Notes: generated by a model not told the origin, from the sequence alone. 49,910 nt of DNA from a virus (IMGVR_UViG_3300037418_001222), one strand, 5' to 3'. Counted from the stretch's first letter, positions 6,039-48,616 are shown. Program-made: numbers and translations.

Positions 6039-6434
6039 CTATTCAGCCTTGGTATTTTGGAGTAGTTGGTTGTTTTCCTTAACCAGACGATGGATATCGT
6101 CTGTTATCTCTAGAAGAGCCTCAGCATCATGATAGGTCTGTTCAAGTTGTTGATCTGACTTAGATGATGATACCTTTTGACCAACCATAATGATGGATAA
6201 GAGAACTAGTTGTAGGAAGGTTTGAGCGATCCATGCAATTAGAGCTCCAGTTCCAGCAGCGATTGCTTGTGGTAAACTGATGAGTGCTAGACCAGCAAAA
6301 ACGTAAGCACACCACATGGTTCCAACCATGTCTGTAATTTTGAGTGCAAGCCAATTATTGAATCCGACAGCATTCACCTTCTTTGGGTGATTTGACTTAC
6401 GCTTTTCGATATGTGGATGTTGCTTGTGTTTCAT
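6039..6434 (-). CDS. DUF1003-like membrane protein
   Basis: ITDMVGTMWCAY, two hydrophobic helices, QTFLQLVLLSIIMVGQ. Confidence 0.75.
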   Translation of the reverse strand: MKHKQHPHIEKRKSNHPKKVNAVGFNNWLALKITDMVGTMWCAYVFAGLALISLPQAIAAGTGALIAWIAQTFLQLVLLSIIMVGQKVSSSKSDQQLEQTYHDAEALLEITDDIHRLVKENNQLLQNTKAE

Positions 6435-12270: not shown

Positions 12271-13261
12271 AAGTGAACATCTTCTTAATCTCTGGAACCT
12301 TCTTATCTGGATTCTCAGCTATGATCTTGGATAGAAGGTGACTCCATTTCTGCGCTGATATAATAGAATTGAATCTATTATCAGCGTACATCTTCATAAA
12401 TTTACTCTTAGCTATAACATCTGGGTCATTCACCAGAGGAATTGCTGAATTGAGTAGATGATAGAGCTTAGTTGCGTGCCGGTTTTCATCCTCTTCAAAC
12501 TGATACATGTAAGTAAATCCGGCCGATGTATCTGGAAGAGCTCCATAGTTAGAATGAATACACATGAGTCCAGCAGACATCGCCTCGATTAAACATAGGC
12601 ACGATGTCTCTGGCCATATCGATGGATATACAAATATATCCCCGTTTCTTCCTAGAAAAGTTCGAATCTCATCATTTGATACTGTTCCATGGTTCGTGAC
12701 TTTTGGATGAGAATTTAGTTTGTCAAATAGATAACGATATTGTTCGTCTCTTTGTTCCCATCCATAAAGCTTGAACGATGAGAATACATCGAGTCTAATG
12801 TTATCGTGTTTCTTACACAGTTCTTCAAAAGCTGCAAATAAAATGTGAAGACCACGATGTGGTGTTGGAGTATAACAGATACGAACTGGCTCATCTTTCT
12901 TTCGAGCCAAACTTGGGTTTATGAAATCGATGGAATTTTCGATTACTTCACAATGCGACCACGGAATACCATAATGATTGATGTAAGCTTGCATCTGCCA
13001 ATTTGAGACAAATACAATTTTATGGAATTTGTTCCACCCTGAGTCTTTTAGTACTTCTGACTCAGGATCACCGGGTAGATCATGACACCATAAGATTCGA
13101 AACTTATCCTCATTAAGTTCTCGAACTCTAGATGGAATGATCTGGAATTGTTCTAGAAGTTCTCTAGGAACAGATCCATTATACAACCTCTCTTGGAGGA
13201 GCTCTGTTCCACCTTTGGAATTTACATTAGTCTCATTGCGTTCAATTAAGTCTTTATTCAT
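12257..13261 (-). CDS. GT4-family glycosyltransferase
   Basis: GGTE, FVSNWQ, YTPTPHRGL, YPSIWPETSCLCLIEAMSAG (ExxxxxxxE). Confidence 0.88.
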   Translation of the reverse strand: MNKDLIERNETNVNSKGGTELLQERLYNGSVPRELLEQFQIIPSRVRELNEDKFRILWCHDLPGDPESEVLKDSGWNKFHKIVFVSNWQMQAYINHYGIPWSHCEVIENSIDFINPSLARKKDEPVRICYTPTPHRGLHILFAAFEELCKKHDNIRLDVFSSFKLYGWEQRDEQYRYLFDKLNSHPKVTNHGTVSNDEIRTFLGRNGDIFVYPSIWPETSCLCLIEAMSAGLMCIHSNYGALPDTSAGFTYMYQFEEDENRHATKLYHLLNSAIPLVNDPDVIAKSKFMKMYADNRFNSIISAQKWSHLLSKIIAENPDKKVPEIKKMFTYVSQ

Positions 13262-13492
13262 CTACCTTCGGATTCCTAACTGCCACTTGATTTGTTCTGA
13301 GCAAATCCACTTTAAGTATTCTTTTCTCTTATGTTCTCTAAGATTAGCATATTCAACTTGAATACTCCAATAATCTACTAATCCTGGTTGTCTATTATAT
13401 TCCTTAGCTACCAGATATAATGCTTTCTCACATCTATCTAATTCTAAGTTAGCATCTTTTACTTCTTGACCAAACCTAGTCCTTGTTATCAT
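13262..13492 (-). CDS. hypothetical protein
   Basis: 76-aa ORF ending in TAG. Confidence 0.5.
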   Translation of the reverse strand: MITRTRFGQEVKDANLELDRCEKALYLVAKEYNRQPGLVDYWSIQVEYANLREHKRKEYLKWICSEQIKWQLGIRR

Positions 13493-19408: not shown

Positions 19409-20122
19409 TTATGCTACCAATTCTGTTTCTTCTTCGATGTCAACGAACGTAATTCCATCTGGAACACGTTGACGAAAACGAAGTAGGTTATAGTTGCGAA
19501 GAAGACCGCGTTTATGTTCCTCAATAGGAAAGACACCAATGGCGGTCTTCTGATTTCCGATATCCGGCTCTCTGAATACTTTATACTTCGCTTTCATCGA
19601 ATCAAGAACTCTCTCGACCTGTTCGAGTTCTTCAAGATCAGCAACACCACAACATGTGAAGTGAAGATCCTTAGTCTCCTCTTGACTCAGCTCTGTTCCG
19701 AGTTCGAGAGCAACGTGAGCAGTCTGCACAAGCTGATACTCTTCGAAGAGATCTTGTCTCGTGAAAAAGTAGGAATATCTCCTAACCAAACTCCCACCAC
19801 TAATTACCTTAGCAATTTTGTGGTATGTCTCAATTTCCTCTTCAGTAAGAACGTCTTCAATTGGAGAATCGAAGATAGTTTTATGTTGTCCATTCCAAAG
19901 ATATGCTCGAAATAATCCTTTAACAGTATCAAATGGAGCACGCCCATTCGCAAGTTTTGTGGTCTTGGTAACTGGAGTGAAGGCCTTACGAATAAAATGC
20001 TTAGCAATAGCTACCTTATCATCTCCCTTCGCTGCAATGGCCTTTAGAATGCAGAGTTGAGCGTGGTGGAGTGCGGTGTGATTGATACTATTCCTCCAGA
20101 GAGTTACAAAATCATGTTTCAT
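19409..20122 (-). CDS. protein with a C-terminal PTH2-like peptidyl-tRNA hydrolase domain
   Basis: RQDL..YQLVQTAHVA...FREPDIGNQKTAIG, matching phage PTH2-like proteins; extra about 110-aa N-terminal domain. Confidence 0.75.
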   Translation of the reverse strand: MKHDFVTLWRNSINHTALHHAQLCILKAIAAKGDDKVAIAKHFIRKAFTPVTKTTKLANGRAPFDTVKGLFRAYLWNGQHKTIFDSPIEDVLTEEEIETYHKIAKVISGGSLVRRYSYFFTRQDLFEEYQLVQTAHVALELGTELSQEETKDLHFTCCGVADLEELEQVERVLDSMKAKYKVFREPDIGNQKTAIGVFPIEEHKRGLLRNYNLLRFRQRVPDGITFVDIEEETELVA

Positions 20123-20132
20123 TTCTTTAATT

Positions 20133-20213
20133 CCTTAATTCTTGAGTTATATTTTAATGTTCATTTGAAGTAAACTACATTACTCAAGATTAAGGTGGCT
20201 TTAACTAGCGCAT
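20133..20213 (-). promoter_or_regulatory. amber minigene plus RBS-sequestering hairpin upstream of the PTH2-like gene
   Basis: AGAGGA-ATCT-ATG CGC TAG TTA AAG CCA CCT TAA; CCTTAATCTTGAGT pairs with ACTCAAGAATTAAGG, which holds the AAGG of the downstream AAGGA RBS. Confidence 0.65.
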
Positions 20214-20223
20214 AGATTCCTCT

Positions 20224-20436
20224 TTAGATATAGACTGGTTGAACTAGGTTTACTGGAACAATCTCAAGACCGCGTTGGTTCGAAAAGTGTTCATTGATGG
20301 AATTAGCCGCATCACACTTACGATCATAAACTCGAGCTTCTTGAAGTGAGTCTACGAAAGTCATTGGAGAATAGAAAGGACGCTTGCCACCCTTAACGAA
20401 CTTACCATCAGTAGTACGAATAACAAACTTGGACAT
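20224..20436 (-). CDS. hypothetical protein
   Basis: 70-aa ORF. Confidence 0.6.
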   Translation of the reverse strand: MSKFVIRTTDGKFVKGGKRPFYSPMTFVDSLQEARVYDRKCDAANSINEHFSNQRGLEIVPVNLVQPVYI

Positions 20437-20465
20437 AATATATCACTTTAGCATGAATAAATGTG

Positions 20466-20542
20466 TGGCGCGCCTGGTGGGACTCGAACCCACAACGCAT
20501 GCTTTTAGAGAGCACCGCTCTAACCAATTGAGCTACGGGCGC
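20466..20542 (-). tRNA. amber suppressor tRNA (anticodon CUA)
   Basis: GCGCCCG acceptor; anticodon stem GTGCT/AGCAT with loop CT-CTA-AA; GTGGG-TTCGAGT-CCCAC T arm; GCCA end. Confidence 0.85.
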
Positions 20543-20614
20543 GTAAAATGTAAAGGGAAAGTGGTGGACCTAATTGGTCGGAATATACTTCATTTGTATT
20601 ACACCAATAGTTAA

Positions 20615-20692
20615 TGGTCCGGGTGGAGAGATTCGAACTCCCGACATCCTGCTCCCAAAGCAGGCGCGCTAACCAGGCTGCGCTACACCCGG
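20615..20692 (-). tRNA. tRNA-Pro(UGG)
   Basis: canonical cloverleaf, CCTGC-TTTGGGA-GCAGG, ACCA. Confidence 0.93.
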
Positions 20693-20693
20693 A

Positions 20694-21143
20694 CTATTGT
20701 TTTCTTCCAAATATGACAGCTCTATTATCAGAGTACGCTACAATTGGGGCGAAATCAGTGAATGCTTCGAGCTTCTGAACTATATCAGTTCTACAGTCTA
20801 GAACAAAGTTCTGTACGACTAGAACTGCATGTTCTTCTCTAGTGATTAGATCCTTTCCCATGAGCACCCAGATGGTGCTAGAATCGAATCCAGCCGCTAT
20901 AAGAATAGCTCTTCCAAGGATTGCATAATCCTCACAATCACCGGTTTTGAGAGATAGTGTTTCTTCTGGCGATTGCCAGTAGTCTACATCATCTCTCTTG
21001 TATGTGATGTTTCTTCTCATCCATACAATTACTTGTTTAGGAGTTTCAAGACCTTCAATGGGAGATATTCTCTGTGATTCTACTCTAATCCATTTGGGAG
21101 ATAGAGGAGCACCATCAACTGATATCCAACCTTGAAATTCCAA
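20694..21143 (-). CDS. transglutaminase-like cysteine peptidase (BTLCP/C93-like)
   Basis: DYWQSPEETL...GDCEDYAI...HAVLVV...VLD. Confidence 0.82.
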   Translation of the reverse strand: MEFQGWISVDGAPLSPKWIRVESQRISPIEGLETPKQVIVWMRRNITYKRDDVDYWQSPEETLSLKTGDCEDYAILGRAILIAAGFDSSTIWVLMGKDLITREEHAVLVVQNFVLDCRTDIVQKLEAFTDFAPIVAYSDNRAVIFGRKQ

Positions 21144-22090: not shown

Positions 22091-23509
22091 TTAACGGAAG
22101 TCATACCTCTCGGTCATTACTGTCTTACGCATGATTCCCTCAGGAGTCATGTTGTTCAGGTCCGCAGACAGAACAGACTTCATGATCGATGGGCTGAAAC
22201 CAGAGACTAGAGCAGTTCCAGTTTCATCGAAGGTTACAGGAACATTGCCATGAGCGTTGATGTTCCAGAAGACGATGGCTGGTACTTCATATCCAGCATT
22301 CTCATAATCATTTCTGATCATTTCGACTGCTCGAGCATCAGGACGGCAACAATTGAACTGCATATCCGACATGATTAGAAGTGCGGTTGGCATCTCTTCC
22401 TGAGGAACATCCTTGTCACATGCGACCTGAAGAATCTTCTTAAGAGCCTTCTGGAGGTCGGTACTCATACTCCAGTTAGACTTAGCCATAGTGTTATAAC
22501 GCTGAGACAGAGTTCCCTTAACGGTCACGAACTCAGGAGAGCTGGAGAACGTTAGGAAAACATCTTTAAAGTCACCAGTGTTCTTGCTTGCGCAATATAG
22601 ACCAAGTGACACCGCAACGTCAAGGCATGATACGGTTACACCCTTCGCTCCATAGCCTCCGGCTGGGCAGGTCATAGAACCAGAGACGTCTACTAGAGGT
22701 AGAACACGAGCATCACCAATGTAGTTTGGTAGAGCTTCCCACTGAGCATCGGCCACAGACGAATCACCATACCTAACGGTCTTGATGACGTCATATGGAT
22801 ACACTGCTCCGGCGTTTACCTTCGCAACCTTTGGATCACCCTTCTTCAGAGCGGCCTTCCATGCCTCGAAGTGAGCTGGAGCGTGCTTCTTGAATGCCTT
22901 CGTGTAACGAGACATAGCAAGAGATGGTACGTGATTGAAGTTAATAGCCTCGAACTCACGGTTACACATAAGAGTTTCGACGACCTGAGTTAGAGACACA
23001 AGAGTCTTACGGTACTGCTTAGGTGAGAAGTGCATGAACTCACGGAGTTCGCGAGCTAGAGCACCCTTACGAGGCATCCACTTAGCGCAGAGACCATTTC
23101 CGTCACGCAGAGCATCACGGATTAGACTATATGCGACTTCCTTCACTTCACGAGTAGAGAATACGAGCAAGTCATCCCAACGACCAAGCTCTGGAACCTT
23201 ACGAAGAAGATTCGTCTCAGTCAAGAGGTTTGGCTTAACCTTCTCAAGGTGACGAAGAACGTCACGGAAAAGCTTACGCTCACCGGTGCCCTGGCGCACA
23301 TCTCGACCATGGAGAGCGATACGGACAGCTAGATCGGAATCCTCGATGAGAGCTAGATCGAATAGCTGAGTAATGTCCTTACCACGAGAAGCACCAAGCT
23401 TACCGAATAGATCGACGTTGGCGCGACAGGTAGACTCAAAAGCCTTCATGCCATTGGTGGTACGAGTCTTCTTTGGAGTGTTACGAACTGCATTTGCGAA
23501 AGTAGTCAT
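22091..23509 (-). CDS. DUF2828-family Ro60/TROVE-like protein with C-terminal vWA domain
   Basis: TTNG, RDVRQGTGER, GRWDDL, AKWMPR, VPSLAM; vWA MIDAS DVSGSM, SDMQF, IVFWN, SGFS. Confidence 0.88.
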   Translation of the reverse strand: MTTFANAVRNTPKKTRTTNGMKAFESTCRANVDLFGKLGASRGKDITQLFDLALIEDSDLAVRIALHGRDVRQGTGERKLFRDVLRHLEKVKPNLLTETNLLRKVPELGRWDDLLVFSTREVKEVAYSLIRDALRDGNGLCAKWMPRKGALARELREFMHFSPKQYRKTLVSLTQVVETLMCNREFEAINFNHVPSLAMSRYTKAFKKHAPAHFEAWKAALKKGDPKVAKVNAGAVYPYDVIKTVRYGDSSVADAQWEALPNYIGDARVLPLVDVSGSMTCPAGGYGAKGVTVSCLDVAVSLGLYCASKNTGDFKDVFLTFSSSPEFVTVKGTLSQRYNTMAKSNWSMSTDLQKALKKILQVACDKDVPQEEMPTALLIMSDMQFNCCRPDARAVEMIRNDYENAGYEVPAIVFWNINAHGNVPVTFDETGTALVSGFSPSIMKSVLSADLNNMTPEGIMRKTVMTERYDFR

Positions 23510-47321: not shown

Positions 47322-47398
47322 TGGTGTCCTTGGTGGGACTCGAACCCACATACATTCTATTTTGAGCAGAATAGGTTTACCGTTTCCGTCACAAGGAC
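47322..47398 (-). tRNA. tRNA-Leu(CAA), short variable loop
   Basis: TTCTG-CTCAAAA-TAGAA, ACCA end. Confidence 0.85.
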
Positions 47399-48539: not shown

Positions 48540-48616
48540 TGGTCAGGGTGGAAGGAATCGAACCTTCACCTCGGGGGTCCAAGCCACCGATTTCTCACCG
48601 CCTAAACTACACCCTG
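48540..48616 (-). tRNA. tRNA-Pro(UGG), second divergent copy
   Basis: CAGGGTG/CACCCTG, loop CT-TGG-AC, ACCA. Confidence 0.82.

Follow-up and report, generated by a model that had tools for sequence, protein, structure and literature searches.

A phage tRNA with the anticodon CUA as the probable key to an amber-gated leader ahead of a PTH2-like gene

The viral sequence IMGVR_UViG_3300037418_001222 (49,910 nucleotides, hereafter the window, meaning the whole stretch of DNA that was analysed) carries on its minus strand, at positions 20466-20542, a 77-nt tRNA gene with the anticodon CUA, referred to herein as tRNA(CUA). This gene likely encodes a functional amber-suppressor tRNA whose conserved job is gene-specific, namely licensing the translation of a downstream operon rather than recoding the genome. 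The reading is carried by the conservation of the tRNA, its co-occurrence with leaders interrupted by TAG or with homologues of the target gene that have TAG as codon 3-4, the conservation of the peptide encoded after the TAG, the predicted pairing of the leader's end with the Shine-Dalgarno sequence of the next gene, and the fold of the protein encoded there, which is that of PTH2, the archaeal/eukaryotic-type peptidyl-tRNA hydrolase. The window belongs to a large soil phage of the T4-like kind and represents its replication module; its genes include those for a family-B DNA polymerase, UvsX, a gp41-like helicase, a gp61-like primase, NrdA, NrdB, a metallophosphoesterase and a Ro60-like DUF2828/DUF7788 protein; no close relative by DNA was found in the GenBank phage collection.

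A conserved tRNA with the anticodon CUA

Among the window's 16 tRNA genes, all on the minus strand, ARAGORN assigns the anticodon cta to one, and the assignment is supported by Rfam, by reading of the sequence, and by covariation. The gene matches RF00005 with 63.7 bits (gathering score 29) over model positions 1-71, that is, at full length, and has the canonical body of a class I elongator tRNA: a 7-bp acceptor stem (GCGCCCG) with one mismatch, C6/A67, in the minus-strand sequence; a D arm with a 4-bp stem and a D-loop, AAUUGGUUA, that contains GG; an anticodon arm with a 5-bp stem (GUGCU/AGCAU) and a 7-nt loop (CU-CUA-AA) in which U33 and a purine at position 37 are present and 20506-20508 form the anticodon; a variable loop of 5 nt; a canonical T arm (stem GUGGG/CCCAC); a discriminator G; and an encoded CCA. 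The position of the gene, the loop CT-CTA-AA and the stem GTGCT/AGCAT had been proposed in an earlier note made from the sequence alone, and all three are borne out. The label "tRNA-Pyl" given by ARAGORN comes from the anticodon alone, and a tRNA-Pyl identity is rejected, as it calls for a 3-nt variable loop, a 6-bp anticodon stem and a small D-loop without G18-G19.

With the Ro60-like and PTH2-like neighbours as anchors, approximately 130 loci were gathered from IMG/VR, among which 26 distinct CUA tRNAs were found. In an alignment of 23 relatives of tRNA(CUA), the anticodon CTA is invariant, the loop is kept as (C/U)U-CUA-A(A/C), and compensatory double changes occur in 16 of the 20 stem pairs, a combination that excludes an assembly error, which the earlier note had named as a possible refutation, and that points to long-standing selection on UAG decoding. 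Contigs of two rhizosphere-metagenome runs show no differing letter over 20100-20644; being contigs rather than raw reads, and perhaps stemming from the source samples, they are weak support when taken alone. An exact-pattern search of IMG/VR with the body of the tRNA gave no match. The A36-A37-A38 of the loop is the context usually required for i6A37 on tRNAs that decode codons starting with U.

The acceptor stem differs freely from one family member to another, as does the discriminator (G, A or U), so that the likeness of the window's copy to tRNA-Arg, which the earlier note had pointed out, carries no weight, although its particulars (GCGCCCG, the discriminator G, and a U rather than an A at position 20) are as described there. 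The best matches among other phage tRNAs were inconsistent (Met, Lys, Leu-UAA, Arg), and no parent isoacceptor can thus be named. The amino-acid identity of tRNA(CUA) is probably set via the anticodon, or of little importance, and the caution that the charged amino acid is not readable from the sequence is upheld.

A TAG-interrupted leader and its hairpin

A minigene region lies downstream of tRNA(CUA) at 20133-20226 on the minus strand. Behind a Shine-Dalgarno sequence, AGAGGA (20218-20223), a leader open reading frame (ORF) at 20190-20213 reads ATG CGC TAG TTA AAG CCA CCT TAA, i.e., M-R-UAG-L-K-P-P-stop, with its in-frame amber codon at 20205-20207. The second proline codon and the leader stop (CCT-TAA) form the beginning of the 5' arm, CCTTAATCTTGAGT (20182-20195, minus strand), of a hairpin whose 3' arm, ACTCAAGAATTAAGG (20133-20147, minus strand), holds the Shine-Dalgarno sequence AAGGA (20132-20136) of a gene for a 237-aa protein. 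The hairpin has a minimum free energy of -20.6 kcal/mol (z = -2.48), with 4 of 200 shuffles being equally good, and is predicted to pair CCT-TAA with the Shine-Dalgarno sequence of the 237-aa gene, in the manner of the masking stems of arrest-peptide leaders.

All loci were scanned for ORFs led by a Shine-Dalgarno sequence and bearing an inner TAG and a terminal PP motif. The leader design recurs in every tRNA(CUA) locus of the family with enough downstream sequence, 10-400 nt after the tRNA, and the 21 distinct leader lineages that adjoin tRNA(CUA) always have TAG as the inner stop (e.g., MR-TAG-FKPP, MR-TAG-NSTGPP, MRNKQL-TAG-QVRGPP, MTNEGIGG-TAG-PYDAIGPPI, MNDKVTTV-TAG-IDLKPP, MTRIRDIPR-TAG-SIRAPP, and MKSNQAECW-TAG-TYNYSRGPP). 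The leaders of relatives end in RAPP (locus L121) or RGPP (L004, L122, and L136-138), and also in IGPP, TGPP, KAPP, and KPP. When TAA or TGA was set as the inner stop instead, the scan returned scattered matches only, without a ribosome-binding site.

In locus L002 and in G001, a complete relative (173,592 bp, CheckV 100%) that has the same tRNA and leader and a Ro60-like protein 72% identical to that of the window, M-N-UAG-Q-L-A-Q-P-P-stop stands directly after tRNA(CUA), and its proline and stop codons, set in different arm sequences, again pair with the next Shine-Dalgarno sequence. Hairpin arm sequences differ completely across the family, and the pairing of the PP and stop codons with the Shine-Dalgarno sequence of the next gene is kept in more than eight lineages; equivalent pairings with other arm sequences are seen in L002, L092, L014, L111, L121, and L122.

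Co-occurrence and coding constraint point in the same direction as the leader's architecture. Across the 44 evaluable loci with a PTH2-like gene, the leader is present in all 19 that have an upstream tRNA(CUA) and in 1 of the 25 that do not (Fisher p = 1.4e-11), and ungated PTH2-like copies begin directly at M-(T)-K-R-Y-A-Y-F-F. The post-TAG peptide PYDA(I/V)GPP was recovered in 13 distinct variants from IMG/VR and Joint Genome Institute (JGI) metagenomes, with the TAG never replaced; within this subfamily, differences after the TAG fall mainly on third positions of Gly and Pro codons and are synonymous, and the residues before the TAG vary (GG, TK, AF, TM, VD). The A-R-G-P-P of L136 and L137 differs likewise by synonymous-type changes after the TAG. 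Judging from these substitution patterns, the codons after the leader TAG are probably translated. No leader variant with a sense codon in place of the TAG was found among 11 IMG/VR and 8 metagenome matches, and all 29 distinct gates (leaders or ORF starts) use TAG, a codon that provides only about 13% of stops; as the lineages are related, the nominal 0.13^29 makes the result look more significant than it is, although its direction leaves no doubt. The nearby minigene, which the earlier note had singled out as a local target, is therefore supported by the 21 TAG-leader lineages, the conserved post-TAG peptide and the association of leader and tRNA, and the note's conditional suppression survives the comparison, "conditional" in the physiological sense being what we infer.

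Three loci (L136-L138) have two in-frame TAGs at conserved positions, in the form I-TAG-(K)(I/V)PDT-TAG-N..YARGPP. In L136 (2554-2660), the two-TAG leader runs in frame, without a stop, into the N-domain/PTH2-like gene, and complete read-through past RGPP would there yield an N-terminally extended protein. In L015 (3447-3860; identical to L120), a variant of the L014 locus, the 3' half of tRNA(CUA) is gone, as are the leader and most of the N-domain gene, and a G run lies nearby; this may be a natural deletion or an assembly defect.

The downstream gene and its PTH2-like product

The 237-aa protein is encoded at 19409-20122 on the minus strand and has 72 homologues, all of them unnamed. In its AlphaFold2 model (pLDDT 90), the N-domain (residues 1-110) is helical and matches no recognisable fold, and the C-domain (residues 112-216) adopts the PTH2 fold, with a Foldseek probability of 1.0 against the archaeal and human PTH2 structures 3erj, 2zv3, 1rlk, 1wn2, 1xty, and 1q7s, and a VIA Z of 13.4 and an rmsd of 2.1 over 103 aa against 1wn2. 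The similarity of this C-domain is one of fold only, as no match was found to Pfam (PF01981), to PHROG, or to PDB sequences, a profile search of the PDB included. Q133, T134, H136, and E185-P186-D187 are invariant and resemble the AQxxHA and DAG motifs of PTH2.

In more distant relatives, two separate ORFs, coupled in translation, encode the N-domain and the PTH2-like domain. Gated genes of a second class encode proteins of 120-150 aa that have only a KAF(T/I)AG..PY motif in common with the N-domain, and an hhalign comparison of the N-domain of the first class with the gated protein of the second was not significant.

A permuted, two-piece transfer-messenger RNA (tmRNA), with tags such as ANDNDLMDMRLAA, lies directly upstream of or near the tRNA(CUA)-leader module in many relatives (L007:7735-8200, L008:8708-9173, L010:6119-6531, L014:5625-5964, and L111:1273-1647) and in the cultured Xanthomonas phage XacN1 (L146:2624-3044); none was found in the window by ARAGORN or Rfam. 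The adjacent tmRNA fits a role of the module in ribosome rescue or peptidyl-tRNA recycling.

Candidate amber gates in cultured phages

With the 237-aa protein as query, tblastn retrieved distant homologues in the Xanthomonas phages XacN1 and Xoo-sp13 and the Stenotrophomonas phages RAS14 and CM1. In XacN1, ATG-AAG-TAG stands behind a Shine-Dalgarno sequence AGAGGA, in frame with the annotated ORF364; the PTH2-like ORF of RAS14 (WAX21615) starts MK-TAG-TLNKLKNTEQTKGQTILQHGLSV and that of Xoo-sp13 (Xoo-sp13_327) MKK-TAG-NFNLMK. In RAS14, residues conserved with XacN1 sit upstream of the annotated GTG start, with no ATG between the TAG and them, so that the ATG before the TAG is the only start codon ahead of these residues; along with the post-TAG conservation of the leaders, this is indirect evidence that an amino acid is inserted at UAG. 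Thus, XacN1, RAS14, and Xoo-sp13 each have a TAG at codon 3-4 of the PTH2-like ORF, and all three encode a tRNA(CUA), far from the gene, whereas the homologue in Klebsiella phage RaK2 has no TAG and its genome no tRNA(CUA). The CUA tRNAs of XacN1 were described in a paper whose authors could name no target gene (PMC5852040). Since the module occurs in cultured Xanthomonas and Stenotrophomonas phages, it is directly testable.

Two side observations concern these phages. XacN1 has tandem CUA tRNAs (L146:1470-1545 and 1553-1628, repeated in the other terminal repeat) with identical D, anticodon, variable and T arms and wholly different acceptor stems and discriminators (A versus G), as if one decoder were presented to two charging or processing specificities. 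A small protein annotated as a glutamyl-tRNA amidotransferase is encoded 1-2 kb upstream of the amber-gated gene in XacN1 (ORF360, L142:1893-2336) and Xoo-sp13 (Xoo-sp13_324, L144:1-148); judging by its size, it may resemble YqeY or a GatB tail, and it could help to charge tRNA(CUA) with Gln. No homologue of this YqeY/GatB-like gene was found in the window or its relatives.

A proposed mechanism and its signal

The mechanism that we infer, as the most economical one, comprises aminoacylation of the tRNA, read-through, ribosome arrest, and Shine-Dalgarno unmasking in response to a physiological signal. A ribosome would initiate on the short leader M-R-UAG-L-K-P-P-stop and meet the amber codon. 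Should release factor 1 (RF1) win there, the ribosome would leave, the Shine-Dalgarno sequence would stay paired with the proline and stop codons, and the gene would be off; should charged tRNA(CUA) win, the ribosome would proceed to Pro-Pro-stop and pause, as either an arrest motif resembling RAPP/RGPP or slow termination behind proline might be expected to cause. Stalled there, the ribosome would cover the 5' arm of the hairpin, freeing the Shine-Dalgarno sequence and allowing translation of the PTH2-like gene, and in phages of the XacN1 type the same dependence would be achieved more simply, with the TAG at codon 3. The motifs RAPP and RGPP have been shown by experiment to cause arrest; EF-P does not relieve it, and a variety of sequences may precede the motifs (PMC12992588, PMC10951233).

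By its design, such a gate would make output track amber-suppression capacity, i.e., charged tRNA(CUA) relative to RF1. More suppression would give more hydrolase, which argues for a sensor of RF1 weakness or a checkpoint on phage tRNAs and against a sensor of tRNA damage; as the signal, a termination-stress (RF1) sensor or a checkpoint that phage tRNAs are made and charged is favoured. More tentatively, and as a possibility that we would not rate highly, tRNA(CUA) and the UAG-arrest leader may together form a natural, orthogonal sensor that gauges termination capacity, or else how intact and charged the phage tRNA pool is, and by which a PTH2-type hydrolase is switched on when RF1 fails to outcompete the suppressor (e.g., through host defence or a phage-induced change in termination). 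If this is true, the hydrolase would act beside the tmRNA of relatives in clearing stalled peptidyl-tRNAs, and the module would be a response to termination stress that a virus encodes and for which it sets aside a stop codon.

Several points weigh against the gene-specific gate. There is no obvious reason for a phage to tie a hydrolase to a private tRNA, and no RNA runs are listed with the locus. No leader adjoins tRNA(CUA) at four loci (L022, L054, and two in L096), and, conversely, the leader of L139 has no tRNA(CUA) on its 19-kb fragment. The L-K-P-P of the window's leader lacks the R-(A/G)-P-P core of RAPP-like motifs and looks weaker; the window's leader may be likened to RAPP-type leaders in its working but is not counted among them. 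CCN-CCN is also an anti-Shine-Dalgarno sequence, so that part of the "PP" conservation may act at the RNA level. Moreover, a possible sigma-70-like promoter (TTTACT-17-TATAAC) lies within the hairpin loop at 20146-20174 on the minus strand, with counterparts in L002 (TTTACA-17-TATATT, approximately 13100-13135), L094 (TTGACA-17-TAAGAT), and L092 and the common motif TGTAGTTTAC; a consensus promoter scan made no call for it in the window. Transcripts from it would lack the 5' arm, and some would thereby escape the amber gate.

Other explanations considered

The tRNA might instead serve mainly for genome-wide or host-directed UAG read-through (sabotage of host termination, back-up of a weak RF1, or counter-defence), with the leader as a feedback sensor that adjusts the hydrolase. 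Approximately 11-13% of phage genes end in TAG, the DNA polymerase gene of both the window and G001 included; the tRNA genes of XacN1 lie 200 kb from its gated gene and are duplicated with differing acceptor stems; and the position of the module beside a phage tmRNA in many relatives suggests a wider role in termination or rescue. Against this explanation, which is considered unlikely, stands the lack of any conserved read-through product. Searches of the window and G001 found no other conserved gene interrupted by TAG, and extensions after TAG do not differ in length from those after TAA or TGA. Nor do genes ending in TAG have more back-up stops than the others (p = 0.85), a result that is neutral on the strength of suppression. 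The TAG-ATG junction at 13262/13261, where a 76-aa ORF is followed by a glycosyltransferase, was entertained as a read-through fusion and rejected, since it is not conserved: the 76-aa ORF has no homologue, and the glycosyltransferases of relatives stand alone. The authors of the XacN1 study likewise found nothing past the amber stops (PMC5852040). Only the leader, or the TAG at codon 3, co-varies with tRNA(CUA).

It is far less probable that the tRNA does not decode at all and acts as a decoy for host nucleases that target tRNAs, or is a decaying pseudogene, with the leader TAG an ordinary stop. A Ro60-like gene (472 aa, 22091-23509), identified by its Pfam domains DUF2828 and DUF7788, which also rule out an RtcB identity for it, lies in the neighbourhood, which speaks for this view. 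Deep divergence has nevertheless left intact the CUA anticodon, the loop with its A36-A37-A38, and the encoded CCA, and a tRNA of this kind would leave unexplained the in-frame PP-stop, the conserved post-TAG peptide and the TAG in 29 of 29 gates.

The remaining alternative concerns the genetic code. The window is densely coding under table 11, its called ORFs ending in TAA (56), TGA (32), or TAG (11), and genuine TAG stops close the ORFs that end at 6039, 13262, 20694, 25905, 37836, and 42812, as the earlier note had held; its view that the phage is not globally recoded is supported by the window and by the complete 173.6-kb relative alike. In code-15 phages, replication genes keep the standard code and late genes are recoded (10.1101/2021.08.26.457843), and G001 was examined because the window contains early genes only. 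G001 has 34 tRNAs, one of them CUA, a coding density of 92% under table 11, TAG as its rarest stop (TAA 135, TGA 97, TAG 36), and no internal stop in the gp23 capsid gene; no member of the RF-1 domain family was found in it, and an ArfB-like 145-aa ORF was seen only in G007 and is not a general feature. A partly recoded genome with code 15 in late genes that the window, with its replication and nucleotide-metabolism genes only, happens to miss is thus the least probable explanation of all, as G001, bearing the same tRNA and leader, is dense under table 11 with gp23 intact and mostly short extensions beyond its TAG stops, and neither it nor the window has the features of a stop-codon-recoded (code 15) genome.

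Neighbouring features

On the minus strand, tRNA-Pro(UGG) (20615-20692; ARAGORN, Rfam) lies 72 nt upstream of tRNA(CUA), and because no promoter-like site was found on that strand from 21500 to 19300, the two tRNAs are probably co-transcribed. Between them (20543-20614), a 7-codon ORF, MKYIPTN-TAG, is not conserved. L001 (12265-12531) and L002 (12692-12948) have at this place an ORF of approximately 85-90 aa that ends in HFDF-TAG, 7-8 nt before the suppressor tRNA; the short ORF of the window was rejected as a remnant of it, their alignment having scored below the shuffled mean. A transglutaminase-like cysteine peptidase (Pfam Peptidase_C93/Transglut_core) at 20694-21143 has its TAG stop one base before tRNA-Pro.

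Between tRNA(CUA) and the leader, a 70-aa ORF at 20224-20436 on the minus strand ends in a TAA that directly precedes the leader's Shine-Dalgarno sequence; it has two paralogues in L001, is absent in L002, and gave no Pfam or PHROG match. Elsewhere in the window, a tRNA-Leu(CAA) at 47322-47398 is only 77 nt long and lacks the long variable arm usual in bacterial tRNA-Leu, and such short "Leu" tRNAs (CAA, UAA, GAG) recur in relatives of the phage. At 48540-48616, a tRNA-like gene has a two-base "anticodon" (tg) and an abnormal loop according to ARAGORN and scores 46.8 bits with Rfam.

Significance and relation to known systems

Should the gene-specific gate be correct, the suppressor tRNAs of standard-code phages, so far unexplained oddities, would gain a specific, testable target, and a private stop-codon tRNA would act as the key to a riboswitch-like arrest-peptide leader, a form of gene regulation absent from the literature searched. 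The module links stop-codon recoding in phages, arrest peptides of the RAPP type and the protection of the translation machinery by phages (tmRNA, PTH2, Ro60/Y RNA), and a standard-code genome in which selection maintains a suppressor tRNA may represent an intermediate stage towards full recoding of TAG. Its parts (suppressor tRNA, arrest-type leader, Shine-Dalgarno masking) are known, and their combination is new to the literature searched, in which no description of a natural suppressor-gated leader was found.

A parallel outside viruses is offered by bldA of Streptomyces, wherein a dedicated tRNA-Leu(UAA) reads the near-unused TTA codon on which a few regulatory genes depend; in contrast to the amber gate, TTA is a sense codon for which no release factor competes, the tRNA acts on ORFs instead of an arrest leader, and the setting is a cell, not a virus. 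XacN1 (PMC5852040) shares with the window's phage the standard code, CUA tRNAs of the same family and the same family of PTH2-like gene, but has its gate inside the ORF instead of in a separate leader. Code-15 phages (crAss-like, Lak, and others, in which TAG encodes Gln) likewise set a phage CUA tRNA, presumed to be charged by a host synthetase, against RF1, but they have in-frame TAGs in dozens of late genes (10.1101/2021.08.26.457843), whereas the phages considered here keep the standard code and have conserved TAGs only in one leader or in codons 3-4 of one gene.

The leaders ApdA, ApdP, ApcA, and SecM (RAGP) resemble those described herein in being short ORFs that end in x-(A/G)-P-P and are followed by a stem that hides a Shine-Dalgarno sequence (PMC7897499, PMC10951233, PMC12992588). 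They are, however, released by secretion machinery that pulls on a long nascent chain, whereas the present leaders, of 7-25 codons, would lie entirely inside the ribosome tunnel, and the ribosome would reach the motif (LKPP in the window) only past a stop codon that a private tRNA has to read. Finally, switches engineered for genetic code expansion, with a TAG in a leader peptide, make downstream expression dependent on an orthogonal suppressor tRNA in the same way, although they act on transcription through tna or trp leaders (PMC6412442), whereas the phage module would act on translation through Shine-Dalgarno masking and would be the natural counterpart of these orthogonal amber switches.
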